Positions 4,521 through 60,589 are shown, numbered from the whole stretch's first letter. The stretch: 63,777 bases of DNA, filler included, from Hausera hauseri (GCA_046269625.1; 11 parts of 11 records of this genome joined end to end with filler, not necessarily neighbours in it); one strand, 5' to 3'. Program-made: numbers and translations. The notes: generated from the sequence alone by a model not told the origin.

Positions 4521-4674
4521 TCGTGGAATTTGATTTTAAAAATAGTAAAATATATTGCCATATCAACACACTCTGCCTGGTTTATTGAATTTTTGTTTAT
4601 TTTCTAACATTCTAGACTACTTAGTTTTAATGCATCAAATAAATTAAATGCACGTTGGCGCCAAATTCGATTTA

Positions 4675-5165
4675 CATATAGGTTTTCATATATGGAGATT
4701 CTAATGAGGTTATTTGATTCTTCGAAAGATGTATTTTTAACCGAATATTCGAGTTGGGATCGATAATTATTCGAGTTTTAAGCTTGATTTCAAATATTTT
4801 ACATCATATTCCTAATCACAATATACATGTACCTAACTATCTGTGCTTAAAGATCTATTTATTTCAATGTGCTTTACCTTCAAATTCACCTCAATTGCTT
4901 AATCAATATAAGAATTAATTAGCATTTATTAAGTACTTTTACCATATTGGAAAACCTTGTTTTATACACCGCATTGCACTGCACCGCACTAATATTGATT
5001 GGCATGTAGGTTTTCACTCATGGGGATTTGAATGACGTCATTAGATTCTTCGAATAATGCATTCTTGACCGAATATTCGAGTTTGAATAGCTAAATATTC
5101 GACTTGTAAGCTCAAGTTCAAATATCTAACATCATATTTCGATTGGCCATATATGCCTTCCTACC
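4675..5165. repeat. Imperfect ~160-bp direct repeat (starts at 4675 and 5003)
   Basis: Both copies read cat(a/g)taggttttca..atgg.gatt..aatga.gt.att.gattcttcgaa..atg.att.tt.accgaatattcgagtt..acatcatatt; offset 328 bp. Confidence 0.8.
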
Positions 5166-5557
5166 CAGACCCGCTATTAAATTTATCGATTTTTGCTTCA
5201 CTGGGCTTTAAATGCACATTTTGCATAATTTAAAATATTCATTTTGTATCTATATAGCGCATTTTCATGGAATAACTTTAATGCATGAGGAGTATTCGGA
5301 CATGAGGAATCGAATGCTGTTGTTAGACTTTTTCGAAAAGTTCGATATTCGATATTCGGGCCAAAAAGTTTTCAAATTTCTAATATTCGACTTGATATTC
5401 GAGATCAGTATACTCGATTTCCTATCTGTCCCCGCTAATTATAATATCGAATTTTGACTCCTTATGACCTAAAACCTATGGGAAGTCTGTCTCAGTTGCA
5501 CTTTGGATCGATATTATTCGAAATCCATTCGATTGATTTAAATTGCAATTGCACATT

Positions 5558-5896
5558 AGTAGTATAAAATGCGGATTCTGGATCACCCCTCGCCCTCCCT
5601 CTCCCTCCATGCAACCAATAGGAAGCGTGCTTGATGCGCACACAGGCACTGGCTTTGTCAATTCGGCAACGGAGATTTCAAAAATCACGCCGTGAACGGT
5701 GCGTGGTGCACCATAGAAGCAGGGGAAGTGCACGAAAAAAGGCGAATGTTAGAAGGAAATGATGGATGATGACGTGTGATGCACAGAAATGATAGGACAC
5801 GGATGACGCATCAAATGCTGAAGGAAAGAAGTCGGTCAGATGGAACGCAGCGGCATGGGGTGAGGGCAAAAAAGTGATCCAGAACCCGCATATAGT
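5558..5896 (+). mobile_element. Putative Polinton-like element end (AGTAGT...) with internal fold-back
   Basis: AGTAGTATAAAATGCGGATTCTGGATCACCCC matches the reverse complement of 8612-8643 on another contig; 5569-5586 pairs with 5874-5891 (1 mismatch in 18). Confidence 0.6.
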
Positions 5897-6585
5897 TTGT
5901 GGGGAAGTGCGAAACTTTATCGACCAACGGTTAATGGTCCACTAACAATGGACATGCGAGTAGCCGAATGAAACCGAAAAGATCGGTGAACGATGCACCG
6001 ATGACGTCACAGACACCCATGTGTGTGCACTGATAATGGATTCCAGTGTTGAGTGGGACAAGAAACGAAAGCCCATGACGCGGGCTATTAGGTAATGGTG
6101 TCCGAATGGAAATACCCCATTCTCGAACGGAACAACGATGGAAAACGTCGAAAATCGACACAGGGTATACTCTGTGGAAAGGGAAAAACTTTTTTCATCG
6201 AAATTCAAAATAATCTGGTTCGATCAATCGGTCATCGTTTGATGAATACGGCTATGTATGTCGGAAAGTTTTTACGCGTCTCCATCAAAGTATAGCAAAG
6301 GAAAACGAATTTTCTATGTACATGTGAACTTTGAACACATGAACTTTTAAACAAATACCTTCGAAAAATATGGATTATTTTTTCGGTTTTAGGGATGTAT
6401 TTTAAAGTACATCTTTTTGTATCACACACACACACATTAAAGGTTAAATGAAAAGGTAATGTAAGGCCATACAACGTGTGTTAAGTACATCTAAAATAAG
6501 AAAACAAATCAATTATTATTATTATACAGTAGCTAAAACGTTTACAAAGATTAATTTCTCCATTTGATAAATAAGAAAAAGTTAG

Positions 6586-8198
6586 TGTGAAACGTATACC
6601 AAATATTGCAATAACACGCAATATGATGATCCGAAGATGTGTCATCAGAAAATGGAAAAATATTATGAATCAAAAAAAGGATATACATGTCCAGTATGTT
6701 GATCTCTAAACGACATACCATATATGGAATTTTATGCCAAACATAAGGAACATATCAATCAATTTCAAGATATAAGCAAAATAGAAATGTTAGTGCAAAT
6801 ACATCGTCATCAAATAAACCGGATCAAATATCATCCACACCAAATGCATCATGGCAGTAATATACACCGAATGCATTATCATCATCATCATCATCATGTC
6901 AGTCGTTCAAACCCATGCACACGATAATGCCAAGAGGACAGCAATACTATGGAATGAAACATTACGGAAACCAACATTGTCTGTCCCCAATACCAAACAA
7001 CCGATAAAACAACATACGGAAAATTTCTACATAAACATGTACCACACATGGATCAATCTCAGTCGAAAAGAAAACGCGAAATTTTAAACGAATCAATCAA
7101 CATGATGATGAACAATTCAACAACAACAACAACAGCAGCAGAAACTCCACCACCACTACAAATCCCTTTAACATCAAATGGCATAACAAAGTGTCGAAAA
7201 AGGAAAGGTGAAGGATCAACGTACCACCACCATCACGAAAAGGCACCACGAAAAACAGTAGCAGACAGACATGCCTTTAATCGAAGAATACGCGAATATA
7301 CAGTTAAACCGCAACATGACGCAGCAGAAATCAGGAGTAATAACCAGTTTATGGGAAATCACAAATCCGAAATTGCTGGTATTCTGGAGGACGCAGTACA
7401 TGAGTTAAATTCGATAAAGTGAATTAGTTTATTGAAGCCATTTACACGAATTTTGATGGCGAAATCACAAAGCGTGCATTCAAGATAATCGAAAAATCCG
7501 TTTTGTGGACACAGATATCAATGCATTTATTCAAAATGAAAGTATCAAAATCGTCCACAAAGCAGATGAAAGTGAAGCGATGAAAAGCACGTATACATTA
7601 GACCACATAGTACGACTCAATATTAGAATCAATAAGTATATGCCAATCGGTGGATAATCCTATATACCACTGCCGGATTAGATTGAAGGCATAAAGTCGT
7701 GTATTAATGTGATGAACTACAACGATAACCTGTGCTTCACATATGCCGTTTTAACAAAAATGCTCATAGATGCAAATGAACAAAATCCAAACAGAGCAAA
7801 TAAATACAACAATATACATCAACCATATGATTTTTCCACAATCAGTCAGTTTCCACCGAGTATGGACAAAATCAAATATTTGAAAATGGCAATAATAATA
7901 TGTCAATAAATGTATTCTGTATAGAAGAAGAAACAAGGAAAATATATCCGTTGAAAATTTGAAAAAAAGAAAAGGATGATCACCAAGATTTGTTGTTGAT
8001 AAGTTATGAAGAAAGTAGTCATTTTGTATACATTTGTCATTTCAGCAGGCTGGTCAGTTCATAGATACCCAGAAATAAAAGCCGCTTATTTATATGCAAA
8101 CGATGTTTAATGCACTACTATAGTGAAACGAAATTGGAACAACATAAGCTATACTGTTCAGAGAAACAATCTGTTCGTGCTGAATTTCCCGATGAAGA
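6586..8198 (+). pseudogene. polB: pPolB copy B, diverged, 5' portion only (cut by contig end)
   Basis: Cys/His repeats (CHQKMEKYY..YTCPVC..FYAKH), then KRAFK, SYIPLP..KSCINVMNYNDNLCFTYAVL, IYPLK, HFVYI, ICKRC..H..C, collinear with copy A. Confidence 0.85.
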
Positions 8199-8298: not shown

Positions 8299-8643
8299 TT
8301 CGAACCGCCGTAATGTGCCTAGGTCAACCGTGAAGAGAAAATTGCATTATTTTTCTTCAGTCACACGCAATTCCCTAAAAACCACTTTTCTTTCAGGTCA
8401 CCTTTTCCCCGTGTCCTTACGACTTTTTCATCCGGACACGCTTTTTGCGTCATTTCCTGCCCGGAAATTACGCAACTTCCTATGGAAATTGCGCAACTTC
8501 CCATGGAAAATGCGTAATTTCCTCCGGATGTTACGCAAATCGGACCGGAAGTGACGCAATTTCCACCGGAAGTGACGCAATTTCAGACCGGAAGTTACTC
8601 AATCGGGGGGGGGGTAACCCAGAACCGGCAATTTTATACTACT
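8299..8643 (-). mobile_element. Putative Polinton-like element end with a 21-bp palindromic tandem array
   Basis: Ends in ...ATTTTATACTACT at 8643 (reverse complement AGTAGTATAAAATTGCCGGTTCTGG); about seven GGAA-N10-TTCC-like units at 8463-8603. Confidence 0.65.
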
Positions 8644-21975: not shown

Positions 21976-22083
21976 NNNNNNNNNNNNNNNNNNNNNNNNN
22001 NNNNNNNNNNNNNNNNNNNTTAATTAATTAANNNNNNNNNNNNNNNNNNNNNNNNNNNNNNNNNNNNNNNNNNNNTTGAAATT

Positions 22084-25000
22084 TTGAAATCAAAAGTGAA
22101 AGAGTATGAAGATAGTTTAGTTAATAGTTTTAATCAATTAACACTTCAGGACAACGAAGAAGTCTTCGATGAATACATTAAAATTAAAAATTTACTTTTA
22201 AATTGGAATATTAAACTTGAGAATAAAATTCCAGTAGAGAAAGTTAATAACAATGTTGTAATTAGTAATGATAATTCCATAGCTGTAAAACTACCCAAAT
22301 TGGAATTACCACATTTTTATGGTAATAACGAAACTTGGATTTCCTTTAAGGAAATATTCAAATCTTCAATTCTTGATAATAAATCTTTAAGTGATGTTGA
22401 CAAACTAACTTATTTACACTCTTCAATTCGCGGCGATGCCGCCAAACTTATTCGAGGATTTGCAATCACACCGGAAAATCTAATTCATTGCTGGCAAATT
22501 CTTTGCTCTAGATATGAGAACAAGAGACAATTGGCAACATGCCAAATAAATAAAATATTTCGCATGAAGATTGTTAAAGCAAATAATTCGAAATTTTTAT
22601 TAGAAGTCATCGACATATGCAATGAAGCTATTCGAAATTTACAAACTTTAGGTTTGGAAGCGAATCATTTAACTGAATTGATTATTATTGATTTTCTTAT
22701 TTCGAAAATGGATGATACAGTAAATCAACGTTGGGAATTAACTCTTGACAATAATACTTTTCCTACACTAGATCAATTCAAATCATTTGTTGAAAAAGAA
22801 GCTAGAAGTATGAAGGAATATAAGTTTACTAAACCGGAAGTAAAGAAACTTCCGACCAAGCCTAATATAAATCATAACATAGACAAAAGGTTAAGCGTAA
22901 ACAATGCTATAGTGAAAAGTTCAAATGTAGATAAGGAAGTGCAACTTTATAATTGTATGTTATGTACACAATCACATGCATTATTTAAATGTCCTACATT
23001 CCATTCAATGAGTGTAAATGACAAATGGAAACTAGTGAAAGATAAAAATTTATGTGAAAATTGTTTACGTAATAACCATAATACTAACAATTGTAAAGTA
23101 GGATTCACTTGCAAGAATTGTGGGTCCAGACATCACACATCTTTACATATTTATGCTGTACAAAATCAAGTCCGTCCAACGGAATCGGTAAGTTCGGTAG
23201 CAAGTAGTTGCACAAATTCTCCAGATAATAACATTCTATTATCCACAGCCATAATTAAAGTCAAGGATCAGAATGGTAAATTACTTCCTTGTCGGGCTTT
23301 AGTTGATAGTGCCTCACAAAATTATTTAATTTCTCGGCAATGTGCCGAAAAACTTGAATTACCAATGCATAAAAGCACACACAAGCTGGTTGGGATTAAT
23401 GAAACCTCAGCTGAAACTTCTTTATTCACTACTACATTTCAATTCAGTCCGCATTTTGATACAAATTCATTTAATGTTAATGCATTGGTGGTTTCAAAGA
23501 TAACGACATCTCTCCCAAACTTTAAATTGAAAAAACAAAATTGGTCTCATTTAAATCAGTTAATTCTTGCAGACCCATCATACTTTGTTGAAAGTGACGT
23601 TGATATTCTTTTGGGAGCAGACATATTTGTATCCCTAATTACCGGTATTCCTATACTAGGACCTAAAGGCACTCCAGCCGCATTACCCACAAAATTAGGT
23701 CATTTGTTATCTGGGAGTGTGAATATAAATTTAAAACAAAATTCATCGGTTGTTTGCCATACCTTGGTAAATATTGACCATACTTTAAAAGGCTTTTGGG
23801 AACTAGAATCTGTGCCTACAACGATAAAATCTGAAGAAAAGGAAAATTCAAATGATGAAAATGAGCTGTGTGAATCCATCTTCCAAAAATATCATACTCG
23901 AAATTCAGAAGGAAGATATATTCTAAAACTTCCTTTTAAAGAAAATTCTATTCTTGGGGAGACAAGAGAAGGCGCGTTAAGAAGATTTTACTCTCTAGAG
24001 AGAAAATTACAAACAGATAATTCATTAAAGAAAAAATATATTGCATTCATGGAGGAATACGAAGAGCTTGGCCACATGGCCCCTCTGAACTCTGAGTTAA
24101 CATCATCCCATTACTTCTTACCGCATCATGGAGTTATAAACAATAATTCCACCACCACGAAGTTAAGGGTTGTTTACGATGGATCTTTTAAAAGTACAAA
24201 TGGTAAATCCTTAAATGATAATTTAATTACTGGAAAAAAGCTGCAAACTGACATCTTTCACATTCTTATTAAATTCCGTACTTTTCCAATTGCCTTCTCG
24301 GCAGACATCACCAAAATGTATCGACAGATTCTGATACACCCAGAAGATAGAAAATATCAACAAATATTGTGGCGTAAAGGTCCCCACGAAAATCTAAAGA
24401 CATACACATTAAACACGGTAACTTATGGCACTTCGTGTGCGCCTTTTTTAGCTATTCGCACTATTCATCAACTTTGCGAGGATGAGAGAGATAGATTTCC
24501 TCTAGCTTCAAAAATCGCTCAAGAGTCATTTTACGTAGACGATCTACTTAGTGGAGAAAACAACGTCAAATCTGCCCAAGCAGTTATCCAAGATCTTCAA
24601 AGCTTGATGTCGGCCGGTAATTTCGAACTGCGGAAGTGGGCATGCAGCCATCCTGAAGTGGTCGCCAACATTCCAGAAAACCTCAAGGCAAGTAAAACCT
24701 TTCATGCCTTTGATGATGATGATGATTCTTCTCAAAAAATCCTGGGACTATTTTGGGATTTAAATGAAGACTCGTTCCAAATACGCGCTGTTCCTTCCGA
24801 TAATATTTCTACTAAAAGGCAATTATTATCGATAATTGCACGAATCTTTGACCCTTTAGGATTCATATCACCATCAACTATCATTCTGAAAATTATACTC
24901 CAAGATCTGTGGAAGGCGAATTTGGATTGGGATGATCAAATCCCATCTGAAATTCATACTCGTTGGAATAAATTCCAATCTGAAATTGAGTATTTAAAAC

Positions 25001-27132
25001 ATATCAAAATTCCTCGATACATTCATATTCAAAGTGCCTCCACTTTTCAAATTCATGGATTCTGCGATGCCTCTCCAATGGCATATGCCGCCGTAATTTA
25101 TATTCGAACTCTTTCGGACACACCACGAGTATTTCTACTCACATCCAAAACTCGTGTTGCACCTGTGAAACAGGTAACGCTCCCTCGACTAGAGTTATGT
25201 GGTGCTGTTCTACTAGCTGAACTCATAGACATTCTGAAATCATCCTTAAACATCCAAACTCAAGATACCTATCTTTGGTGTGATTCCACAATCGCCTTAT
25301 GCTGGATTAATAATCCTCCACAAAAAGGTAATCAATTCGTACTTCATAGAGTGCGAAAAATTCTTTCTTCAACAAACAAAGAATCATGGCTACATGTCCC
25401 CGGAAAAAAAAATCCTGCTGACTGGGCTACTCGAGGTCTTTATCCAAAACAGTTACAAGAAAACGCGGAGTGGATCCATGGTCCACAGTGGTTGTATAAT
25501 TTCGATCCACTAATACTATCTGCAGCTCAATACCCTAGTGAAACTGATGAACTTCCTCCTACTAGTGAACCCAATTATTCAAAGGATTCTGTGTGTTTCA
25601 TCCAACAAGTTAATAAGGCACTTGACTTCATAAACGATTTTTCGTCCTACCTTAAATTAATTCGCACTGTGGCTTGGATATTTCGATTCACTAATAACCT
25701 AAAATCAACTACTAAAAATTCTGGACCCTTAAGCTCCTTCGAGATCAATCGCTCGATTCATACGATTTCCAAACTATTACAAGAAGGTGAATACAGCACA
25801 GAAATGCTTCTACTCAAAAACAGTAAACCTCTCCCCAAAGCAAGCAAACTCCTTTCTCTAAATCCATTCATTGATCCTAAAGGTATACTCCGTGTTGGAG
25901 GACGTCTCCGACATCAGCAAGACTTAAGCTTTGACGAAAAGCATCCCATACTCATTCCTAAAAACCATCATTTTACTAGACTTATAATTCAACACTTTCA
26001 CAAGATGAATTTCCATGCCGGTCAAGACCTTGTTTTATCTCTTATCCGGCAACTATTTTGGATTCCAGACGGAAAATCGACAATCAGAAAAGAGTTACGA
26101 AAATGTATTGATTGTTTCAAATTCCATACCCGACCTACTCCCCAACTGATGGGGGATTTACCATCATCAAGAATACATCCCTGTCGTGCCTACGAGCAAA
26201 TAGGAATCGATTTCACAGGTCCAATTACAACAAAATGCCAACATGTACGTAAGCCTACTCTATTCAAATCTTACATTTGTTTATTCATTTGCATGTGTAC
26301 CAAAGCCGTACACCTAGAACTTGTTTCATCACTCAGCACTTCATCATTCTTAGCTTCCTTGCGCCGATTCGTCTCCCGTCGTGGTTATCCTTCAGATATA
26401 TATTCTGATAACGGTACCAACTTCGTTGGTGCTGCTGCTTACCTCAAATCTCTCTTCAAACTACCACATGACTCCACTATCCAAGATTATTCATCTCAAC
26501 GAAACATCAAGTGGCACTTTATTCCACCCCATTCTCCCAATTTCGGGGGACTGTGGGAAGCGTCAATCAAGTTGACTAAAAGCCATTTACTAAAAACTTG
26601 CAAAGCTGCCATATTTAATTTTGAAGAATTAACAACATTATTAAGCCAAATTGAAGCGTGTATAAATTCAAGACCGTTGTGTCCGGTGTCTCCTGATCCC
26701 AAGGATCTCCGAGTTCTCACCCCTGGTCACTTTGTAATCGGTGGTCCATTAATTGAAGTTCCTGAAAACATATCTCATCATACTGCTTTAAGTTTTCATT
26801 CTAGGTGGACTCAAATTCTGCAATCGAAGGAGAAATTCTGGAAACGATTTAAGGTTTCCTATCTTCATCATCTGCAATCTCGAGCCAAGTGGAGGAATGC
26901 CAGGAAACCACTTGAAGTCGGTACCCTTGTTTTGATTCCCGACGCCTCCCCACACAATCATGGATCTATACTTGGACGAGTGGTTGAAACTTATCCTGGT
27001 GATGATGGACTCGTTCGCGTCGCAAGCATCCACACCTCTAAAGGAACATTTAAACGATCCATATCTCAGCTTGCCGTCCTTCCCGACCAAGATCACGCAG
27101 CATCTTCGGCCGCCCCGGAGGATGTTGGATAA
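22084..27132 (+). CDS. BEL/Pao LTR retrotransposon gag-pol polyprotein (5' end cut by contig start, otherwise uninterrupted, 1682 aa)
   Basis: KLPKLELPHFYG gag motif, three zinc knuckles (CMLC, CENC, CKNC..HH), protease ALVDSAS, RT YFLPHH..KLRVVYD..YVDD, RNase H GFCDAS..LPRLELCGA, integrase IDFTGP/SDNGTNF/GGLWE, C-terminal GDDGLVR. Confidence 0.96.
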   Translation: MKSKVKEYEDSLVNSFNQLTLQDNEEVFDEYIKIKNLLLNWNIKLENKIPVEKVNNNVVISNDNSIAVKLPKLELPHFYGNNETWISFKEIFKSSILDNKSLSDVDKLTYLHSSIRGDAAKLIRGFAITPENLIHCWQILCSRYENKRQLATCQINKIFRMKIVKANNSKFLLEVIDICNEAIRNLQTLGLEANHLTELIIIDFLISKMDDTVNQRWELTLDNNTFPTLDQFKSFVEKEARSMKEYKFTKPEVKKLPTKPNINHNIDKRLSVNNAIVKSSNVDKEVQLYNCMLCTQSHALFKCPTFHSMSVNDKWKLVKDKNLCENCLRNNHNTNNCKVGFTCKNCGSRHHTSLHIYAVQNQVRPTESVSSVASSCTNSPDNNILLSTAIIKVKDQNGKLLPCRALVDSASQNYLISRQCAEKLELPMHKSTHKLVGINETSAETSLFTTTFQFSPHFDTNSFNVNALVVSKITTSLPNFKLKKQNWSHLNQLILADPSYFVESDVDILLGADIFVSLITGIPILGPKGTPAALPTKLGHLLSGSVNINLKQNSSVVCHTLVNIDHTLKGFWELESVPTTIKSEEKENSNDENELCESIFQKYHTRNSEGRYILKLPFKENSILGETREGALRRFYSLERKLQTDNSLKKKYIAFMEEYEELGHMAPLNSELTSSHYFLPHHGVINNNSTTTKLRVVYDGSFKSTNGKSLNDNLITGKKLQTDIFHILIKFRTFPIAFSADITKMYRQILIHPEDRKYQQILWRKGPHENLKTYTLNTVTYGTSCAPFLAIRTIHQLCEDERDRFPLASKIAQESFYVDDLLSGENNVKSAQAVIQDLQSLMSAGNFELRKWACSHPEVVANIPENLKASKTFHAFDDDDDSSQKILGLFWDLNEDSFQIRAVPSDNISTKRQLLSIIARIFDPLGFISPSTIILKIILQDLWKANLDWDDQIPSEIHTRWNKFQSEIEYLKHIKIPRYIHIQSASTFQIHGFCDASPMAYAAVIYIRTLSDTPRVFLLTSKTRVAPVKQVTLPRLELCGAVLLAELIDILKSSLNIQTQDTYLWCDSTIALCWINNPPQKGNQFVLHRVRKILSSTNKESWLHVPGKKNPADWATRGLYPKQLQENAEWIHGPQWLYNFDPLILSAAQYPSETDELPPTSEPNYSKDSVCFIQQVNKALDFINDFSSYLKLIRTVAWIFRFTNNLKSTTKNSGPLSSFEINRSIHTISKLLQEGEYSTEMLLLKNSKPLPKASKLLSLNPFIDPKGILRVGGRLRHQQDLSFDEKHPILIPKNHHFTRLIIQHFHKMNFHAGQDLVLSLIRQLFWIPDGKSTIRKELRKCIDCFKFHTRPTPQLMGDLPSSRIHPCRAYEQIGIDFTGPITTKCQHVRKPTLFKSYICLFICMCTKAVHLELVSSLSTSSFLASLRRFVSRRGYPSDIYSDNGTNFVGAAAYLKSLFKLPHDSTIQDYSSQRNIKWHFIPPHSPNFGGLWEASIKLTKSHLLKTCKAAIFNFEELTTLLSQIEACINSRPLCPVSPDPKDLRVLTPGHFVIGGPLIEVPENISHHTALSFHSRWTQILQSKEKFWKRFKVSYLHHLQSRAKWRNARKPLEVGTLVLIPDASPHNHGSILGRVVETYPGDDGLVRVASIHTSKGTFKRSISQLAVLPDQDHAASSAAPEDVG

Positions 27133-39574: not shown

Positions 39575-40474
39575 CTAGGGGTGTTTAAATATGAACTGGA
39601 TTTTTTTTAATATACATTTATTATACAAAACATATGTACAAAATCATTACCTATTTCTCAACATAGAATCCATGCACCTGTATACACCGTCACCATCACC
39701 TAGGTAAGCCCATAATACCCTTTCAAAAAAACTTTGTGGTTGGTCAATTAGCCACCGCAGCACAAAAGGTTTAACTTTATCAAAAGTTGTAAATCTTTTT
39801 CCTCCTAACGCTTCTTTAAGTGGAACAAATACATAAATGTCGCTTGGAGATGAATCTGGACTGTAAGGTGCATGTGGAAGCACTTCCCAGTGCATTTTTA
39901 GTAATGTTTCGCCTGTCAATCTGGAAACATGGGGCGTGCATAGTCGTGGAGAAGACAGACATTCCGGATCAATCGATCTCGTCTTTTTGAACAAAAAACC
40001 GGCTTAACTTTAGATTTGAGATGACTAAAACAATATTTTGCATTAATGATTCGTTGATCTGTCAGAAAAATCAATGAAATTGACGCCGCGAAAATCGCAG
40101 AAAATATTTTCCATTATTTTTCCTAAGGAAGATGCCATCTTGGCTTTTTTGGGTGAAGGTGAACCTTTGTGACGCCATTCCATACTTGTTCTTTTGGTTT
40201 CAGGTGTAAAATAGAGCATCCATGTCTCATCACATGTGATTATTGAATGGAGGAATGGATCACCTTCCCTTTCATAACGATACAAGAGCTGAGCTGAAAT
40301 TTCAACTCGTGCAGCTTTGGTATCCACCGTGCACTAACCTTGCTGTAGTTCAGGTGATTATAAATTGTTTCAACACTACCGACACTTATTTCAACCATCT
40401 CATCTAATTCAGAGATTGATACGACGAATGTGGTGTACGAGGCGGTCGATTTCTGCAATATTCATTTCAGTGAC
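39575..40474 (-). mobile_element. mariner (DD34D) transposon remnant, 5' part cut off at the AGTAG end
   Basis: KVSARWIP, IITCDETW, HAPYSPDSSPSD motifs; end TA|CTAGGGGTGTTT at 39573-39586. Confidence 0.92.
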
Positions 40475-40960
40475 AGTAGGGGGGAAAATGGGGCTTCGGT
40501 CCCACTACCCCCCGGGGGGATAATCGATAAAATCAATTTTGCACATGTACCAATCGATAGTTCCCTATAATCATCATATAATCCCTCTTTATTCCATATG
40601 ATCCTCCTATATTCCTTCCATATTCCCCATAATACTCATATTTTCCTTTCTTATTCTATATAATCCTTCTATATTCCCTATAATCATCACATTTTCCCTT
40701 CTTATTCCCTATAATCCTCCATAATCTTCATATAATCCGTATAATCCTCACATATTCCCCATAATCGTCCTATACTCCCTTCTTGTTCCCTATAATCCTG
40801 CTCTATTCCCATAATCATCCTATTTTTCCTTCTTATTCTCTATAATCCTGCTATATTCCCCATAATTCTCATACATTCCCTTCTTATTCTCTATTATCCT
40901 CCATAATCCTCATATATTCCCTCCATATTCCCTATAATCTTCCTATATTCCTTTAGCTAT
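40475..40960 (+). repeat. Putative element end (AGTAGGGG...) plus pyrimidine-rich TATTCCCTATAATCCT-like tandem array
   Basis: Mariner coding sequence stops at 40474; the first ~90 bp resemble 51211-51295; degenerate array at about 40560-40950. Confidence 0.7.
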
Positions 40961-41164
40961 ACATTTCGTATATTGTATTTTACCCATACACATACAAACA
41001 CACGCTATAAAAAGTGTTTAGCGTTATGTTAAATTTATGTTGTTGCGAAATAAATGTGTTATGAAATTAGTTGGCCTTATCCTATATTCCACATTACTTG
41101 ATCTAAAAGACAACACGACATTTTTTATAAGTTTTATTAATACAAAAATACAATGCTAAGATAT

Positions 41165-44100
41165 TTACATTAATGCAACATACCCGTAAGGTAGTGTGCT
41201 TATTCCATCACCCAGGATCTGCCTTTTGTCATACATCTAATTTAGGCTCTTTTTCTCTAATGTTACTGTCCCAATGTTATGAGCCTAAACTGGATCCTTC
41301 GCATCGCTGATATGATATGAATCTGCTTATGCAGAACTCTCACATAGTCATTGAAGCCAATCTTCTTGACTAAGGTCGCCCTTTGAACCCCTTTAGCCCG
41401 CTTCTTTACTTGACAACATATATCAATGGCATAAATTTTTGACCTAACAGCTATAAATCTCAAGATGATTGCCCCATTCACCTCGTCTTTGAATTTCCCA
41501 AAAACCTTCTTGTTGATAATTAAATAGTTTCGCTAAACCTTCGGATAATCCGAGGTATCCATGTGCTGAGCCAATTTCGCAAAGTCCTCATAAATGTCCT
41601 CTGTATGGATCTGATAGATGAAACTATCGGTATCCATGTACATCAGCTGTATGGACTTGAATGTAAGGACCATGATGTCACAGTGGAATTTGTACATCAA
41701 GGTATTTGACAGGTCCAGTATTGCCATACCCACATATTTGGGCTTGTTGAATTGCAAGGATGTTTTCAGCGTATGAATGATGACCAAGTTTTCAGCATAT
41801 ACGATGCTGCTGTGGAAGTTTGGCTTGGCAATGAGCTTCTTTGCCCGCTTCCACTCAGATACCAGTTCGATATTTATCCTGTTGCAGATATTCTCCATGC
41901 TCTTGCCAAAACGCTGTTGTTGCACAGATTGAACTGGTCCTTCTCAAAGTCATTCTTGACATTTGTCCGAAGCTTGGCATTGAGGTCTATATATGGCTTC
42001 AGCCAGTTAGACTGACTGAACTGCAGGGCCCGATGGATTTTAGTAATGCGGAATCCATTCCTGATCGCCTGCTGGAGATTTATATAGTGAACTACATACC
42101 TCTCCCTACTATCTAGATGGCAGAGCAGCTTTCTATGCTTGCTTCAGGGAGGAAAGCAGCTGTTGATGCCTTGTATGGATAGAAGCCGGATATTCCATAT
42201 CCACCTCCAGTGTGTATCCCGTATCTCCAGTGGGATCCAGATCCAGTATAGGCATGTTTTCAGGATACTTGACCCACTTAAAGTTATCATGTGCAATGGG
42301 GCGCTCATTGCCTATCCATATAGGTTGTTAGCATCCAGGTATGATATATATGAGGATTCCTTGAATGGATCGTAATTGGCCATATACTTGTTGTTGGCCT
42401 CACTATACCGTTGGATGGCCTGGCATATTCCACCTCTAATGCCTCTCTCGACCATGAGGATCATGTCGTAATCCTTAATGTCTGCAGCTGGACACCTGTA
42501 TAGCGCAGCATTGCTGCCCAACTCATCCCTGGAACCGTAAAGAATTAAGCCGGATCCAATGCATGGCTCTATCGTAACATCAATGAAACTCTCAAAGACA
42601 TCCGCAAGAAGCAGTACGTCCGTCTTGAAGTATGTCGCTGTATTCTCCTAATGTTCCACATTGGAATGCATGCCATACGTTCTGAGCATGCTGGTAGTCC
42701 ATATCACTGATATCGCAATCAGAAAGGATATTGTAAAAACCCTTCTTGGCCGGCAATGATGTCTCATCCAGTGTGTCCCATGATGTTATATAGTCATAGG
42801 GAAACACGCCTTTCCTTTTTACTAGGTCGAATGCAGTGGGAAAGAACCGCTTCGTCTCCTTGAGTTCTTCTGAAGGGAGGTTCTTCACTAAACTGTCAAA
42901 TGAAGACGACATGCAAAGGAAACTGTTTATGAAGCGAAGCCTGATTTTGCCGACATGCTTGGTAAAGGTGATCTATTTTTTCCTCACTGTTGGGGATCAC
43001 CTCAATGTTTCCTTCAATGCTGCCCAGTTCCCGAACAATGAAATGGGAATCATAGCCACTGAGATTATGGAATACTACAGGCACATATATACATGTTTTA
43101 CAACGTAGATTGCAGTTGTTGCAGACTGCACCTCTATATGTGCCTGTAAAATGGCAATGATCCATGACTTCATAATTCTTCTTAGTGAATGATTTGGAGC
43201 ACTATTCTTCTTCTTGTTGCTTCGATATGCTCATTATATTCTTATGCTGCTGCATCATATCTCCAAGCATATGAACCGTATCTTCAAGTCGTTTCATAAA
43301 ATGAGGTGCTGCGCCTCGATCCCTGAATAACAATGGTTCACTGTCCAGTCCTTTGGCATATATGCAATATAATGAGTGCTCATGATATTGGTATGTCGTT
43401 GTGCTGCTATGTTGGGGATTAGGGCTGCAGCTCTGAAATGGACGCAGGATAGCCTCAAAGTCGAAATAGAAAACTATTGGAACCTTGATCTTCTTCTCAA
43501 ACTCCTTGAATTCAATGTAGTCCTCCTTGGGAAATTCTGACCTGATACAATAATTGTTGTTGCAGTACATTTTGTGCTCTGCAAGCTTTAAATCAGCTAA
43601 CTTGCCACTGAAATGGGACAAACATCTTTAGCATATTTCGATTCTTTCCTTATGTTTCGTAATTTGGGATCTGACTAGACGTTCAAAGTTCTTTATCCGG
43701 ATGAAATGCCTCTTTTCACCATCAACTAGTAGGAGCAAATCACTATGGTCTTTCAATTCAGCATCATATATCTGCAGCGGATAGAATTTGTCCTCCTCAT
43801 CCAATCCCAAGATATTGATGGAAATGTTGATTCGACTGAACTTCTTGACTTCATCTATGGATGGCGGGAACTTAATACATTGGAAGTCATAGTTGTGCTG
43901 GATGTTACGGTATACTGTAAACCATTACGAGTTTTGATAGAATGGTATGCATGAAACACATATTGTCGCTATTATGGACATTGATGCACGCGTTTTTCTG
44001 CTGAATCCATTCAGGCAACTGAATATATGAACTGCCCAACATGGGAGAGTACTTGTACACTTGTACTTGTGCACATACACAAGCAGTCTCTGTATGGCTG

Positions 44101-44933
44101 ACAGAGTCCAGTCGCTCTTCTTATCCTGGATCTCCTCAGCCTCGAGAATTAGCTTCCTGTGTTCATCATGCAGCCATTCTACTATATTGGTTGTTTACAA
44201 TATGGACCTATTTCGGGTCTTAAAGGCCCTTTTGGATTCTTCGCCATCAACATTGATGTACGTGGCCTCCAGTTTCATATTGACCTTAAGGGCCTTGAAC
44301 TCTGCCATGTTTTCCTGAAGAATTCCTTGTTTCTTCCTCTGTGCATAATAGGAACTCTTTGAGGGTTGTTTGTCCAGTTGCATCAATAACATCTGCGGCA
44401 TTTTCTCTTTAATGCTGCAGCATCAACTGACCGCTGTCTGACTTTTTGTTGGAGCTGCTGTGTCTGATGTGGCTGCGCCTGATGCGGCTGCGCCTTTCAG
44501 TTCTCTAATATGCTTCACAGCTACTGCATCAGATCCAGAAGCATAATGCAAAGCAGAATATTGCGAAGCATCATACTGCGAAGCAGATGCATCAAAATTA
44601 TGTTGCTCATTAAAGATGGCCTTCTTTGACTTTGACGTAAAGTTTGTCAAATAAGCAATATGATCTTCATAAAACTGCATGNNNNNNNNNNGTATTCTCC
44701 ATCAAATATAACCTCACATCCTGAGCAAATAAAATACAGGACCCCGTTATATTTGTATCCATAATAGTTCATCATGGTATTACGACAGTTCTGAGGGTTG
44801 TGTATTGCACATGTGCAATTCACGTATGAACTACATCCTTGATTTTGCTTAGGCACGAAAGTCACCATTGGCATATTCGTATTGAATATCTGTTTTTTCG
44901 ACTTGGTGAAGTAAATCAGGTGATGCTTAGGGG
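41165..44933 (-). pseudogene. polB: pPolB copy C, close relative of copy A, nearly full length
   Basis: DHCHFTGTYRGAVCNNCNL (HNH/endonuclease VII-like), YFDFE, FHNLSGYDSHFI, RKGVFPYDY, YLDANNLYG, FGKSMEN, YMDTDSF, RSKIYA, KRAKGV. Confidence 0.95.
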
Positions 44934-46886: not shown

Positions 46887-48225
46887 TTAGCAATTGAGGG
46901 AAACGAGAAATGTGAAAGAACTGGTACTGTTTATGTGAGTTAGGCCATTTTCTATATTATCATCAACTATATTGTGAATCGATATTTGCTTAGAATACCT
47001 CGATTCAGTGACTAGTGGTACGTTGAAATGAAAATTGGTCGTGGGAAGTTCGATATTTGAAAGTGACCGAGTTCGATGGTAAAAGGTTTCAACATTTGAT
47101 CTCTGAAAACAAACAGCCGAATTTAAGTAATAAATCGCGCTGCGATATTGTTTGTAAGGAGTAAATGGTATCACTGCTTTGGAATATTGCAGTGTTTCGC
47201 CTTTGCACCAAATAGCCACAGTTTTGATTTGAACATCAGAGGTGCGAATGCACGTAATTATGACGTTGTAAAATGTGTCATTTATTAAACGCAATGAAGT
47301 AAAGGTCGGAATCAGGTGAAGCAGGGTATTGTTTAACATATTAAGAATTTGATCAACAATTAGTTTAGACTCTGCTTTCAAAAATTTGCAAGTTTTTAAT
47401 AACGATGGGAAAATTGTAAAACGAAACCGCAAACTGACATCGGCGATTGTCACAATCAAAGCTGTTATGCAGAACTAAAAATATCGGAAATAATTCCCGG
47501 ATTTTGACATGATAAAGATATCTGTAATAGAACACTTTAGATGTATTGTAAGTTATCAAAAGAAATTACCAATATTTGGCTTCAATAACAATCAAGTCGA
47601 GAATTTTGAACAATCCTAAAAACAAACGATTTGTATGATTTTAAATTTGAATTGTTCTTTTTAAGAATCCGCATATAATCCTCATTTAGTCGACAAATTT
47701 TGTCCATTTGTGTGTTTGTAGCACCATATTTGTATTTCTTGTTTCTTCCATCTACTGATTTCAATTGCAATTTGCCAGTTGATATGGAAAAATCAAAGCG
47801 TATTTGGAAGTCAAGATTTACTTCAATCATTGTTTTGAATGTCACGGATCCATCTTGAAGAAAAATGTCTATTTTATCAGACTCGTCTTCTTGAAAATAT
47901 TCAACATGCTTATTAAATATTTTAAATACATTGGAATATGAAAAGTTTTTAGATATTAGAATATCTGGAGCTTGAACAACACCAACAAATTCATTCGTCA
48001 AAACATAAGCCGCATCTTTATATACAAAATAACGATTTTGGCTGTTAACAATGATGCCAGATCAGTTCGGCATTTTGGAAAACACACCGCTCACTGGAGC
48101 AGCTTGTTGGATACAGGGGTCAGAACTTTCTAACCTTTATCACGCACCAACATATAAAAGAATACTGAGGAGAATGCTGAGATATACTAACAGTTGAATG
48201 GATGCGAGTTCGCTTCTTCCTCATT
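46887..48225 (-). pseudogene. Interrupted ORF of unknown function
   Basis: Successive same-strand ORFs (139, 64, 190 aa) separated by single stops or frameshifts; no motif recognised. Confidence 0.35.
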
Positions 48226-50461: not shown

Positions 50462-51215
50462 ATGGAACAAATATTTCTAACCACTACCGATTATATTTTC
50501 AAAAAGAAATATACCTTATCAGCATAAGATATTAACGAAATGGACGTGTTTGATAATTGGCATATTGCAATTAAAAATCAGTTTATGGGATGTTATTTCA
50601 ATTTTGAAAGGTGATTCTGAGATGATTATGAAGTTTTCTATGGTAAATGTTGGTCAAAATCATTATCAAAATGCTATTATTAAAATTTTACAGTTGTTTA
50701 CAATTACTATTAATGGTATCTGGTAATAATTATTATAATCAATACAAAAGTCTAATAAGAAAACTTTCTTTAAATTTGAAAAGGGTTAGTTTTTTATTAT
50801 GGCTTCAAATTGAACAATGCTAGATTTACTTACTGAAAAGAGAAATTTGCTCAAAGGGTTAATTGACACTCCAAATTACCTGGCATTTCGGTTTTGTATG
50901 GATGATAAGGTTAAAAAATTGTTACACCATGGAGCTAAGTTAAAAGAGGTTGATAAGAATTTCGTAAACAGATGTGTACAAGGAGAAGTGTTAGATTCAT
51001 TCCTGAACATATTAAGTAAATCTTATCTGGCCTATATAAATAACTACCGTAAATTAGATAGAAACGGATACGATATGTTATCAAGATCACCTGATGAAAA
51101 ATCTAGGGCGATTAAAGTGTTGAAGGTCATACGTGTTAAGGTTTCTACCGATTATGGTAACGATCTAAAACAACGACGACAGAATTTATTAAAAAAGATT
51201 CGTCGACAAAAGTAG
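50462..51215 (+). pseudogene. Degenerate ankyrin-repeat-like gene, truncated at an AGTAG end
   Basis: DINEMDVFDNWHIAIKNQFM..VISIL and TPNYLAFRFCMDDKVKKLLHHGAK resemble the ankyrin consensus; the terminal TAG lies inside AGTAGG at 51211. Confidence 0.45.
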
Positions 51216-51645
51216 GGGAAATTGTACCTTCTCTCTCACCCCCGAGTGGGGTAATCGATAAATCGATAGTACACATGTGCTAATCGATAGTGCACTCGGT
51301 GTACTGTAAATCGGAACACTGTAGGTGCACCGTAAAGGCACAGTTGCCATGGCACTTTTACACTGCACATATTGATCGTTGCACAGTGCAGTATTGATCG
51401 AAGTGATTGGGGTAAAGTGCTAATCGGTAGTGCACATCACTGAACATCGATTTTTTGCAGAGTGCAGTGAAGGTGTACATGTGCAAATGGGTGCAAATCA
51501 ATAATATCGGTTTTCCAATAATTCCAATATAGATGATTAGCACATGGCACCGGGTGCAATCGATTAGAAAAACGGTGCACTATGCACTATACAAGTGTGC
51601 AATTAGAATTTAAATCGATCGAATGGTTTTCGAATAATATCGATT
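51211..51645 (+). repeat. Putative element end (AGTAGGGG...) with ATCGAT/GTGCAC-rich repeats
   Basis: Similar to 40475-40560 (AGTAGGGG..CCCC..GGG.TAATCGATAAA..CACATGT..AATCGATAGT); many ATCGAT and TGCAC motifs follow. Confidence 0.65.
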
Positions 51646-53989
51646 CGAAGGTGTAGGTGGTAGAGAAGGTTTGTTCATTATACCATACCTCATAGTCATA
51701 CAGGCGACATTTCAATCCCAATGTAACTTCCTTAACAACTGAGAATGTATGGTCTCGTCTTCGCGGATAAAATTGACCTGACAGCATTATCACCCTTATT
51801 TACATTTCATTATATTAGTACTCTCGATTAATCTTCAGGGACAAAAATAGCCTTACTCCCTGTTAATTCGAAGCTACGAAATTTCAACTAAGACTCGTTG
51901 GTGGAGGAGATTTGAACAAGTGCAAAGTGCCGTTACATTTAAAGGTTTCAAATGCGTTATTTTGGCTCTCTTGACAATACGTTTTTTCATATTATTAATC
52001 GGCATTATATTTTTCACATCTCTCAATATTTCTTATAAAAATAAAAATTTACAGTAAAGTTCGTTTTCTTGTTTGCAGTATAGTTCAAGAAGGAAATTAT
52101 TAGGCCATTGACTGTCTAGCAGCACTGTATATGACAATAGATCAAAGTTGTTGTGGAATGAGTGATAAAATGTTGCTCTTCTTTCAGTAAAACTCGCCAC
52201 TTGATTGAGCAAAGATCCCTGTGGCAATTTGTATGGAAATACCACTGCTTCATGGCTTCAGGTAATATAATACTTATAGAGGCCTTAGTCTGGAACAGAG
52301 TATCAGTTGTCAAACGGTTTTCGTGCCGAAATTGAATACTTTCGCTTATTACTATCGGTCGTATATAGTTTGTCCTCATAAAAAAAGGTTAACTTACCCA
52401 TTTTATGATAGAACCTCCAAAAAAATACTTACCTTTATTAACATCACTGATTTACATAAAACGGTTAATTTACACATTACCGACTCTATAAGTAGGTAAG
52501 GTCTATATCAACCTCTTAGATATAATATCCCGTCCCGAATATACAAGTAAAGGCACGTAAATTGTTCGCCCCATTAATTATATTATATTGAAGTCTCTCC
52601 CAACGTGATTAGTGAGGATTGAACAGTACGAATGTTACAGATTTGCCAACATTGACACAGTTTAAAGTTGCATTGTTACCAAATGGGTCTTTGATAATTT
52701 TGATGTGAACTGAAAATCAAACATTTTGAATTTTTGAAAACATTTATGTGTATTCCATTGATATGTTATTGTGAAATGATACTTTGTTAACAGATTCAGT
52801 AAATTAGCAAGTTGAATCGTAGGAATGGGTATCGATAATACATAAGAGTTTGAACGATTAGTACAAATTCGTAAGTAATGAAATTTGTTTCAATTACTAT
52901 ATAGTACTTTATCCATGTGGCTAAAATAACAATGTAGTTCTACAGATTTTATGCTGATTAACAATATAAAAAACATTTTGTACACAAATCTAAGATTATG
53001 TAACATAAGCTTCTACATGTTACGTCATTTCGCTTATTCAATTTCCACCTTATGTGCAGAGGAATTTTGAAATTTCATAAAATTTTCTTTTCTTTTTCTC
53101 CTTTTTTTTCAACCAATATTTTACTAAGGTTGGATTTCTAGTTTGTCGTGTATGTTATGACAAAATACAATGTGTTCGTCTAATTATCAGTTACATCACT
53201 AATATTTCCTCCTTCTATATAAATATTAACTTTACAAATGAACAATGACATATTATGAGCCAAATGCTTGACCGATATTTACTACGTCTAAACACCATCA
53301 TTTAAATATTAATGGTCTGAAAAGGACAAAAATGTTGTTTATTAATAAACTTATTCTGCATGTTAGGGGGAAAATTGAAGAAGTGAGAAATAACGTAACA
53401 TTTAAAAGCCTACATTGCACAATCTCAGCTCTGTTTGCATTTTTTTGGTACAAATAATCATCACAGAATTTTGTAACTGTCAACTTCTAAAATCCTGACT
53501 AGTATAAAGTGCTGTTCGACGTAGACAATGTCAAGAATTTGAACAATGTAACAATGTGTTTTTATTTTTAGTTTGGTTAATTATCCATCAAGAATCACTT
53601 TCCTTAAAGAATATTAAAATTAGACTATCATATATGACAATAAAGTTGATCAAACATATTTAAATACTCTCAATCTTTTGTGTTTACCCATTTCTGTATA
53701 AGAAGTACATGTTCAGATCCATTAAGTCAAGATTGGAGTCATTACATTTTTCTTACTGACAGAATTGACCAAAATTCAGTCGTTGATAGATACTGTTCGA
53801 TGACAAAAAAATATTTGAGAAAAAATGTCATCAGATCCAAAACCACCTGTTGAAAATACGTCATATAAACGATTATAAGAACATTTTTAATTAACTCGAA
53901 TAATTATCATTATTTGTATAGAAAATGTCGGATAAATTTCTGTGTATTATTAACTAATTTATTAATGCTTCATGAAAATGAATGTAACA

Positions 53990-55734: not shown

Positions 55735-58700
55735 TCATTCCGGTTTGGAAATATCCGTTTGCTCTTTGTCCTCCTTTGCCGAACTATTGTCATTAACTCC
55801 ACTCGTGTCCATAGGTTCTGTGTCCATTTTGTCATCTTCAAACAAAAATGGTTCCGGTGCATCCGGTTCTGCCAATCCGTCATCATCATCATCATCACGA
55901 TGCATCGATGGTTTGACAGTTTCTACAACGTCAGTTGGTTTATTCGGCTGACTGTCACGAACGAGAATAATGCCGCCAATCTCAATTCCTTTGATTGGTT
56001 GATATCGTCGTTCAGATTCCTGTGTCGGTAATTCCAGTACACGCAATTGTGATGGAATTGCTCGTGCTGGATTGTTGAGAATTGTATGATCGGATTCTGG
56101 CGCATCGGTGACTTTCCCCTCCTTTGTCGTCGTCGGCGCTGGGGCAGGCGTATCGACTGCCATCGGTTCCGGTTTTTGTTTCCCTTTCTCCGTTTCCTTC
56201 TTTTTCTGTTGTTTAGCGGTAACACTCAGAATTGCCGTTTCGACTTTCTCCTTCTTCTTCTCCTTCTCCACCGTGATCGGTTCCGGATACGCAAACACCG
56301 ATGGACGGGCCTTGGACTTGATTTCGATTTTGGGCATTTTCAATTCCTTATTGAGTAAAATGACGCAAGTCGGTGTGAATGCCAAACTGACAAAGTTACA
56401 CAGCGGGTACCAGAACCAATAATTCTGGAACACGAGCAGTCCGACAGCCGCTGTCATGTTGGCATTGCCCGTCCGTGTCTGTAATGAGATGGTCACGTTA
56501 CGTCCGCCGGCATCCAGAATGCCCATTGCCAAAATGGCACCGAATTTCGCCATCAAATCCTCATGGCGATCGGCGATCGTCTTGAACAGTTTCTCACGGA
56601 AATCGACTGTTTTCGGATACGTGACTTTATTCTGCTGCATCAACAACATTGCCATGGCAATGTAGGCACCTTGTCGTACGAATGCCACAGAATCCTCCAG
56701 TAATGTCTCCACTAATGAAATGGCCTCCTTCAACGCTGTACCGGCACAACCAATGCCGCATGCCATTGCTGCACCGTATCGCACATGTGGATTGTATGAT
56801 TCACTCAATAACGATACTAAACACGGCACTTGTTCAGGATTCTTGAATAGAATGAATCCCAATGCGGTAACGGCCCATCGCCGTACGTCATCATTCGTAT
56901 CACTGACTGCTGCATGCAGCAATTTCCGGATGGCCTTGTTATCGCCTGTGCCGCAGTACGCCATGCCAATTGTCGCCATGCCGGCCCATCTCAGAATCGG
57001 GAATTTCTCTGCAACCAACGTCTCAATTGTACTGTCGGCCTCTTCCTGTCTGCCGTACATCGTTAATGCCATCCCCAATGCCAATCCACGGACTATTTTC
57101 TCATGGGCAGTTTCCTTAGCATAACTCAGCATATCATTGGTCGTCTCATTCGATCCACTACCCAACATTACGAGTCCCATACCAATTCCCGCTGCCTCAC
57201 CCGTCACGGCATCATCCTGATACAAATTCGATTTCATTTGTTCATAAACATCAGCACGTTCCGTCCCCATCGCCGCCAGACCCAATCCGAGACATCCGCC
57301 GTGCCGCACCGGTTCCGCATTGGCATCACGCAACTGTTTCAGTAGATAATCCGTCATTTCACTACCGCCGTGATTTGCATGCATCAGACCCAATGCGTAC
57401 AGTCCGCCACCCTCTGTGTACATGCTGCTCGACGTTCCTGTTGACGTCTCCTTCGGCAGATACGATGACATCAATTTCAATGCTTCTTTCTCGTGTCCTT
57501 TGTGAATGACACCGAGTGTCGATGTGGCCGTGAATTTCGCCCAATTCACCGCACGACCGAGCCAGTCGAGATTGGACCGTAGAAACTGATCACAGGTCGT
57601 ACCGAAATGCATCAATCCGTTGGCAATGACGGTAGCGTTGTGCGTTACCGAATGACGAACGTCAACTTTGATTTTGTCCAGAATTTTCAAATCGGTGTTG
57701 TTATTTCGAATGAGAAATTGTAAATGGTATTCGATGACTTTCTCCCCCGATAGAATACAATTCAAATTATCAAATCGCGATTTAACTGCTTTATCTTCTT
57801 TCGACAAATCGCTTTCTTTCACTTCATCTTCAACAACTACGGCTGCTGTTTCTTCTTTATTCTCCATATCTTCATCTTGGTCTTTCTTTTCAACCGCTTT
57901 TCCGAACAGTCTGACGTAGAGTTTTGATTGTTGTAACGCACCACGAACTTTAAACATGAATTGTTGTGTGGCGTTTTCATACATATCAAATGCCAATTGA
58001 TATGCCATTACCGATGTATCGTCTGATTGAGCAATCAATTTCTCCAACATATCTGCGGTATTTGTGGAATCGTCGAGAAAAATCAAACATTGACACATGC
58101 TGATATAATCCGGACTGGGTAACATCATGTACAATCGAACGAGTTTTGTTAAGACTTGATTGCGAAATCCGCTGTTGTCAATCAACGTCAGAGCAACTTT
58201 AAATGCATATTGGAGCATTTCATGTTTATCTGGTGCTGTCTGAAAACCTCGTTCGAATATATCCAAACGGTGGCTCTCCAGAGCGATTCCCAAAGCTTGT
58301 TTCTGTTGATGATGTTCGAAGCACTTATCAAACATTCGATTCACCACCTGTTCCAATCGAATAAAATTTGCAATGCTATCGGATGAATCGTTATTACTGA
58401 CATAGCTTTTTTGTTTTATTGAGATATACTCATCGATACATTTGGCATTAATCGTTTCCACATATTCACTTTGTCCGGTAACATCAAATAATTCCTCGGC
58501 ACAAAGAGCATAATTGAGTGATTCTCGAAATTCCGATAAATGATAATAGACTCGAGACGCCAACAGTGCTGCTAATTTATTATGTTTGAATGTATTGTCC
58601 TCATACAACGTTTCAATTTTAGCTATTTCTTCTGCAATTTCCGGCCAAAATACGTCACAGTGTTCGTAGAGCTTTTTTAAAGCGAATCCCTAATTTGTTT

Positions 58701-59650: not shown

Positions 59651-59754
59651 TGACAATCCAATAAAGAAAAAAGGCGTTGGACCCGTTCGATGACAAACGC
59701 CAGTGGATAACAAAGAACAAATGTCGCATATGGACATTATAGCATAAATGTGTG
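59651..59754 (+). pseudogene. polB: pPolB copy E, extreme C-terminus only
   Basis: KKALDPFDDKR..AYGHY, the typical pPolB C-terminal motif. Confidence 0.75.
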
Positions 59755-59959
59755 ATTATTTTTGTTGTATATATTTCATGCCAGTAAATATTTAATTTTT
59801 CATTGTGTTTCTTTTATCAATAAAGTTTTTTAATCATCGTAAATACTGTTTTGGTATTGTGTATATTTTTTACACACAATCATGAATCTCTTTGCATTCA
59901 AACATTTTTGGGTGATCTTTGGTTTAACTAATAACTGTTGACTAGGGGTACACAACAAA

Positions 59960-60589
59960 ATGAAAAAATATTCGAAAAATCGAGTTTTAATGAAAAATTG
60001 GAAATCGATAATTTTGATTTTATTCGATAGAGGACATTTTCCTGATTCCGACAAACTTGATCGCACGTCAATACGACATATGGTGCTGAGATATAGCCTT
60101 TCGAATATTTTATTAACTGCAAATCGATTTTTACCTACAGTGAAAATAAATAATTTTAATTGTACTCGATAGAGAATTTTTTCTGCATCTGACCCACTTT
60201 ATCCCATGTCAATACGATGTTTGGTTGCGGAGATATTTTATTTTGAAAATTTTTATTCTGTTCATAAGGTCGTACAGACTTGCGACCCACACCATTCGAT
60301 AGAGCTCGAAAAACTGAACATTTTGCCCTTCCAACCAAAATTAATAGAAAACTCGGTAAAAAAATATTCGAGTTCGAAAATTTTTTTTTCGAAAATTCTT
60401 TTCGAATAATACCATCGTGTACAGAATTCAAAAGTACACATTTTTCATTATTTCGAAAATTTTCGAAATTTGCACTGAATAGTGCCGCACATTTTCGAAG
60501 TTCTAAAATCAATATTGCACTTTGAAAATTTAAAAATGTAAAAAATTGATTATAGGGGGTTTGGGGCAGTGCGCTCCCTTCTATCTACT
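59960..60589 (-). repeat. TTCGAA-rich subterminal region ending at a putative AGTAG element end
   Basis: Reverse complement from 60589 reads AGTAGATAGAAGGGAG..CCCCAAACCCCCTATAATCAATTTT, loosely similar to the ends at 40475 and 51211. Confidence 0.45.

Follow-up and report, generated by a model that had tools for sequence, protein, structure and literature searches.

Decayed Polinton-type elements with a polymerase gene tail-to-tail with a Maelstrom-like gene in Hausera hauseri contigs, and a possible short family

We examined a 63,777-nucleotide stretch of DNA from Hausera hauseri (GCA_046269625.1), in the following called the window, which consists of 11 small contigs (4-8 kb, 64 kb in total) joined by N-spacers, and studied the elements in it that carry the Polinton-type DNA polymerase gene pPolB. 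The Polinton-type elements and their junctions are real and show a variant gene order. We give an even chance to the following account of two of the copies, A and C: both are decayed Polinton members of the alpha-adintovirus type in which pPolB stands tail-to-tail with the Maelstrom-like gene mael, and they likely represent a short derivative of about 6 kb, ordered end-mael-pPolB-end, which would depend on a helper for integrase and capsid and is very abundant. Taken by itself, the claim of a short family is about evenly balanced. What is new here is the identification of the extra gene of copy A as mael, located tail-to-tail with pPolB.

Polymerase copies and the mael gene

A tblastn and profile search of the whole window detected four solid copies of pPolB (A-D) on three contigs. 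The polymerase and mael features are:

about 849-4474, minus strand: pPolB of copy A, broken, with zinc-finger-like N-terminal repeats, about 77% identical to copy C
5558-8198, plus strand: copy B, a T-type terminus (defined below), followed by about 1.08 kb of non-coding sequence and by a related pPolB (from about 6630), of which the contig end leaves the 5' part
41165-44933, minus strand: pPolB of copy C, broken, with N-terminal zinc-finger-like repeats that reach the contig end
49277-50460, minus strand: copy D, heavily decayed, an internal piece of a pPolB that is more distant
59651-60589, plus strand: possible copy E, a pPolB-like C-terminal tip, with 60589 as a candidate third type of end, recognised by eye only
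225-676, plus strand: mael of copy A (Maelstrom-like DEDD fold), broken, tail-to-tail with pPolB at a distance of 172 bp
41006-41032, plus strand: mael tail in copy C (last 8 codons and stop), 27/27 nt identical to 650-676 of copy A, the rest of the gene missing

An earlier interpretation made from the sequence alone (the sequence-only reading) had counted five pPolB copies on four contigs. Copies A-D stand, while copy E did not rise above shuffled sequence: its roughly 30-codon tip (59651-59755) reached a profile score of -0.3 bits compared to 1.9 bits for the best of 300 shuffles. That it is a pPolB C-terminal tip is plausible. The window pPolB matches Pfam DNA_pol_B_2 and endonuclease VII, and its closest named relatives are those of Rhodnius (50%) and Halyomorpha (46%). 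For a quick tree we combined 45 of the loci that matched over a long stretch with 18 proteins and three copies from the window; A, C and D fell into one clade (support 0.95) together with Rhodnius, Halyomorpha and metagenome proteins; for the metagenome relatives of pPolB, 80 of 544 were among the matches listed. A repeated zinc-finger-like N-terminal module is common to copies A, B and C, and neither the zinc-finger open reading frame (ORF) nor an ORF on contig 8 had a usable atlas match.

Stops and frameshifts are present in all four solid copies. Because all their polymerases are broken, the copies in the window are unable to replicate themselves, and the description as self-replicating does not fit these copies. 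Copies A and C are 77% identical across 3.1 kb, and their differences by codon position amount to 0.16 at first, 0.12 at second and 0.29 at third positions (376 codons). This peak at third positions suggests that the enzyme remained functional in the masters of both subfamilies and that the copies decayed afterwards. Upstream of copy A (4669-5138) and beside E (59977-60253) we also noticed a duplicated segment of 135-140 bp; the two have a similar TCGA-rich style and no detectable mutual homology.

The sequence-only reading had further stated that copy A continues into at least one more gene, which proved correct. Pfam and PDB sequence searches left this gene unnamed. We found 45 homologues, mostly 150-175 aa in length, and the family profile matched the window at 225-690 in two frames. 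A structure prediction made on an intact homologue (P0123), not on the broken window gene, had a pLDDT of 95.6. Its best PDB match was Maelstrom (E 6.7e-4, TM 0.64) and in a comparison with viral models it matched a protein of Drosophila-associated adintovirus 2 (E 4e-9). An adintovirus gene 'mael' is named in the accessible parts of 10.1101/2025.02.07.637071 and 10.64898/2026.07.28.741253; all published work is cited here from partial texts. Judged by the predicted fold of its homologue, the extra gene of copy A is this adintovirus Maelstrom-like gene. Locus scans with mael found nothing.

Two further observations concern the mael fold and its carriers. Ichnovirus (polydnavirus) ORFs gave close mael-fold matches (E 5e-9 to 1e-6). 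Nearly all members of the mael subfamily stem from environmental metagenomes; 8/19 of its contigs above 6 kb measure 9.3-10.8 kb and 0/120 exceed 14.2 kb, sizes that look as if they were free linear genomes of about 10 kb.

The junction between the mael tail and the pPolB tail is common to A and C despite their 77% identity. In copy C the remnant comes directly after a subterminal repeat array. As only the last 8 codons of mael remain there, the sequence marks copy C demonstrably as an internal deletion, and its 0.7 kb between pPolB stop and end is a lower bound for the intact form.

Termini, insertion junctions and unit size

The motif AGTAG is common, with 88 sites in the whole window (sites without N only). 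We therefore ranked all 3828 anchored AGTAG pairs by the score of the extension common to both members (mean -3.5, standard deviation 6.4). The pair 40475/51211 obtained an anchored score of 64 (rank 3/3828) and a local score of 78 compared to a shuffled maximum of 32. The pair 5558/8643, with about 39 bp in common, scored 35 (rank 4/3828). The two pairs ranked above these are a homologous site inside pPolB of A and C and an overlapping local pair, and the next pair below scored 23. Paired with the other four ends, 60589 ranked 596 or lower of 3828. Five AGTAG boundaries had been proposed; this comparison supports four of them as termini of two types, and 60589, which matches none, is unsupported. 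T-type termini start with AGTAGT (5558, AGTAGTATAAAA, and 8643) and G-type termini with AGTAGG (40475 and 51211). The features at and near the termini are:

40475-40564, plus strand: G-type terminus (AGTAGGGG...) inserted in mariner, forming the end of copy C on its stop side, about 90 bp in common with 51211
40561-40954, plus strand: subterminal tandem-repeat array of 20/31/51-bp units, plus strand nearly without G
51211-51650, plus strand: G-type terminus inserted in an ORF with weak ankyrin likeness; a Polinton gene was not detected over the next 3.3 kb inward
8299-8643, minus strand: second T-type terminus with 21-bp subterminal repeats, contig ending after 345 bp
39650-40474, minus strand: mariner transposase remnant (host) with Pfam Transposase_1 and Mos1/SETMAR matches, cut by the 40475 end at about Mos1 residue 77
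5501-5557, minus strand: segment similar to the G-type end at 51211, where it corresponds in inverted orientation to positions 386-440 (49/55 nt, 89%; score 86, shuffled maximum 35)

Polinton/Maverick ends start with AG, commonly as (AGT)2 or (AG)3 (PMC8097293). Since AGTAGT is the commonest vertebrate Maverick end motif in that source and the right end of the canonical locus L123 reads AGTAGGG followed by tandem repeats, both the G-type and the T-type ends are Polinton termini. A pattern search of the loci with the G-type end returned a single chance match without a Polinton gene. Polinton terminal inverted repeats (TIRs) measure 100-1500 bp, and insertion leaves target-site duplications of 5-8 bp; different copies here have only about 90 or 39 bp in common, and none of the contigs holds both ends of one element.

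The alignment bears out that the 40475 boundary cuts a mariner transposase, whose frameshifted stretch had no structure match. At 51211 the stop codon of the interrupted ORF (50814-51215) is supplied by the end itself, as expected of the proposed cut, whereas that ORF resembles ankyrin only weakly (AnkUBD E 0.013, which misses the family cut-off). The distances given earlier for the copies also held: from stop to end about 690 bp in C and about 835 bp in E, and about 1.08 kb from the B end to its pPolB start.

At 1.05 kb upstream of its pPolB start, copy A has G-type subterminal sequence. The segment at 5501-5557 is likely the inner part of the start-side G-type end of A, interrupted by B. On the simplest reading of the sequence, B was inserted about 385 bp inside this end, and the pPolB start of A would consequently lie about 1.5 kb from its terminus. 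The start side of A and the stop side of C would then add up to a unit of about 6.1 kb. Copy A itself would measure at least about 5.9 kb, plus any sequence to the left of the ATC microsatellite with which the contig starts. For comparison, Polintons measure 13-25 kb; the estimate of about 6 kb for the unit comes from the coordinates of two copies. The earlier proposal of a short unit (~5-7 kb) gains one further link from the match between the upstream region of A and the 51211 end. It combined different families, however, for the end type of B differs from that of C and E is weak, and the 0.7 kb distance in the internally deleted C does not reflect the intact arrangement.

A possible history of the short unit would be as follows. 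The start-side end of A would lie about 385 bp beyond the insertion point of B, and its mael side would end just left of the contig. Excised linear master copies would have been replicated from their AGTAG ends, with the terminal-protein domain that their own pPolB carries as the primer; priming by such a fused domain is established for this polymerase family (PMC11161782). An rve integrase would then have inserted the copies, acting in trans if the unit is short and in cis if it is full-size. As a guess, mael might counter piRNA silencing.

Missing Polinton genes and alternative explanations

Gene profiles for integrase, ATPase, MCP, mCP, protease, PW and PZ were built from fetched loci. Six-frame searches of the whole window gave no match for ATPase, protease, MCP, mCP or PW and one marginal match for PZ (iE 0.038). 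No Polinton rve integrase was found in the window, and the integrase profile matched on retrotransposon contigs only. The earlier statement that integrase, ATPase, protease and capsid are not recognisable is therefore upheld by profile search. When the profiles were rebuilt without ten test loci, the full-length genes of those loci mostly scored E <1e-27, and partial genes were weaker. A clear pPolB occurs on 3/11 contigs and a packaging or capsid gene on 0/11; this tally is suggestive of a short family, in a sample that is small and possibly biased. The window copies are derivatives or fragments rather than complete Polinton members. Because they run off contig ends, the absence of integrase holds for the window only, and the same limit applies to the genes without a six-frame match.

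The strongest alternative, which we rate at somewhat less than an even chance, is that these are ordinary full-size (10-14 kb) mael-type Polintons or adintoviruses of altered order (end, integrase/ATPase/protease/capsids, mael, converging pPolB, end). Copy A would be cut at the microsatellite by the contig start, C would be a one-off deletion, and B, D and E would be fragments of related families. Several observations weigh against the short unit. The 6 kb figure joins two different copies, only 77% alike, and no single contig carries both ends. Copy C is demonstrably deleted, and a stretch that lay between the repeat array and the remaining end of mael is gone from it. The ATC run of A resembles the C array in base composition only (score 36, shuffled mean 36). 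The 51211 end matches A over 55 bp only and C over about 90 bp only. In the tree 0/45 loci lie inside the clade of the window's pPolB, and the matches listed in locus scans with pPolB belonged to more distant clades. Of the non-redundant pPolB loci, 60 have a flank of 3 kb or more on one side, and a core Polinton gene accompanies pPolB in 40 of these.

The relatives that carry mael point in the same direction. We found mael in 2/132 loci (L110 and L123), both with the order pPolB, integrase, PW, ATPase, PZ/protease, mCP, MCP, mael, the end of L123 following 670 bp further on. A capsid gene, MCP, thus directly precedes mael in both loci, and the equivalent spot in copy A lies just beyond the contig start. 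The contigs with the nearest intact mael genes measure 10,114 and 10,226 bp, those of one close pPolB cluster 10,467-10,983 bp. Such contigs of 10-11 kb have room for a full gene set and are a hint that the closest relatives are full-size. Furthermore, pPolB is the terminal gene in either orientation among full-size relatives: in L002 and L120 its start lies about 2 kb from the contig start, and in L102 its stop lies about 70 bp from the terminal repeat. The distances measured for B and E are therefore ordinary on their own.

Published data also speak for this alternative: 96% of vertebrate Maverick loci are degraded (PMC8097293), C. elegans has remnants of pPolB plus TIR without integrase (10.1101/2024.01.15.575659), and such elements are broken up in short-read assemblies (10.1101/2023.10.06.561300). 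Locus L024, which speaks for the short derivative, contains a natural 1.9 kb element (1237-3155) with AGTAGAG ends and inverted repeats of about 72 bp; its target duplication is 6 bp long, and of pPolB it has the 3' half only. Together with the C. elegans remnants it makes deletion derivatives a known kind. Another candidate, L012 as a 5.4 kb AGTAG-flanked pPolB element, was rejected; its ends have no common repeat and the right 'end' lies inside a glycosyltransferase-like ORF. The fetched loci also include a Polinton-like pPolB with a duplicated integrase (L092:6932-16256) in a 106 kb contig of a bacterial metagenome-assembled genome, which is probably mis-binned host DNA.

Three results speak against full-size elements. 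Clear pPolB genes occur on three contigs and packaging or capsid genes on none; the 108 bp upstream of mael in copy A contain no MCP C-terminus; and mael points toward the terminus in L123 but away from it in C.

It is improbable that the elements are single segments of a multipartite system, bidnavirus-like or a split Polinton, whose integrase and capsid would reside on another segment with the same ends, a possibility raised by the sequence-only reading for which we found no positive support. The pPolB of bidnaviruses derives from this class, and Vesanto virus is many-segmented (PMC8502044, PMC8363768). Same-type ends in the window have only a short terminal motif in common, and Polintons that lack pPolB and are nevertheless mobile have been reported (10.1101/2025.02.07.637071). 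However, the window contains no partner segment with capsid or integrase, the 51211 end leads to no gene, and the copies are integrated in host transposons rather than free. Assembly chimeras between repeats are the least credible source of the junctions, for although the fragmented short-read assembly yielded repeat-rich contigs of 4-8 kb with N gaps and very high repeat depth, the junctions lie exactly at the AG of the shared terminal motif in unrelated targets, and in an independent public run (X1) a single contig, with 21 letters on its short side, connects a T-type end to zinc-finger sequence like that of C at a second position.

Known systems, abundance and further features

The closest described group are the mael-associated alpha-adintoviruses/Polintons of insects (Eupolintoviridae), which resemble the window elements in the Polinton-type pPolB, AG-starting ends, mael and subterminal tandem repeats (as in L123). 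The described genomes measure 12-17 kb and carry integrase, ATPase, hexon, penton and adenain (10.64898/2026.07.28.741253, PMC8363768, as far as their accessible text goes), none of which was seen in the window elements. The position of mael also differs, as it stands tail-to-tail with pPolB in the window and after MCP at the far end in the mael-bearing relatives. Partial Polintons such as the C. elegans remnants and L024 likewise have pPolB near a terminal repeat and no integrase nearby. Those remnants are scattered, whereas the window holds at least two subfamilies in which the whole-length pPolB region diverged under apparent selection, and is very abundant in them.

Bidnaviruses have NS1 or capsid genes on their segments, and linear plasmids are not known to integrate. 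In the window elements no NS1 or capsid gene was seen, the ends are of the Polinton type and the elements are inserted in host DNA. The likeness to bidnaviruses and pPolB linear plasmids is that of short TIR-ended replicons around a pPolB with fused terminal protein (PMC11161782). The mobile Polintons of Pieris that lack polB (Pannagram preprint, 10.1101/2025.02.07.637071) are comparable as incomplete, mobile elements that imply help in trans. They drop polB and keep the structural genes; the window family would be the complementary half.

A short family of pPolB plus mael is undescribed in the literature searched, which excluded most subscription papers, Repbase, and gene-map figures and supplements that may show the tail-to-tail order in full-size genomes. 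Polintons are defined by polymerase and integrase, and the usual detection needs several hallmark genes within 20 kb (PMC10748475, in its accessible text); with such a demand a polymerase-only family would be systematically missed.

The abundance data come from run X1, the only public run found to contain part of the stretch (share 0.37), and were placed on contig 1 only. We counted 82,286 run contigs on contig 1. The summed depth was 2e4-4e5 over copy A, with mael, pPolB and the upstream region included, and 7e3-4e4 over B, compared to 3-11 for eight listed single contigs, though a summed depth is not a copy number. From these values we infer that the copies of the family number in the hundreds to thousands. 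Hundreds of defective Maverick copies in vertebrates have been called perplexing (PMC8097293).

A bolder version of the short-family account, which we consider doubtful, is a mini-Polinton lineage consisting of the polymerase, a Maelstrom-like anti-silencing gene and short ends. It would replicate its own linear DNA, parasitise helper Polintons for integration and packaging and, with thousands of copies in several subfamilies, act as a satellite of an endogenous virus. If the short family is real, the replication half of a Polinton can persist and amplify as a satellite of full-size elements, a mirror of the mobile butterfly copies without polB, and the trans-mobilisation of Polintons becomes testable. 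If instead the elements are full-size, they amount to a further decayed adintovirus family whose gene order is rearranged and whose abundance is unusually high.

The remainder of the window is rich in animal transposons, namely BEL/Pao and other long terminal repeat (LTR) retrotransposon remnants, mariner and a piggyBac-type DDE transposase. Beside the piggyBac-type remnant lies a pair of ORFs (195 and 159 aa; 46887-48061, minus strand) with no Pfam match, the shorter of which had no atlas match. An intronless ORF of 984 codons for proteasome RPN2 (55735-58689, minus strand) is located on a contig with a G+C content of about 47% compared to 35% and possibly belongs to a second organism in the assembly. 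Finally, a BEL/Pao retrotransposon ORF (22024-27132, plus strand) extends over 1702 codons without interruption, and some elements in the genome are therefore young.

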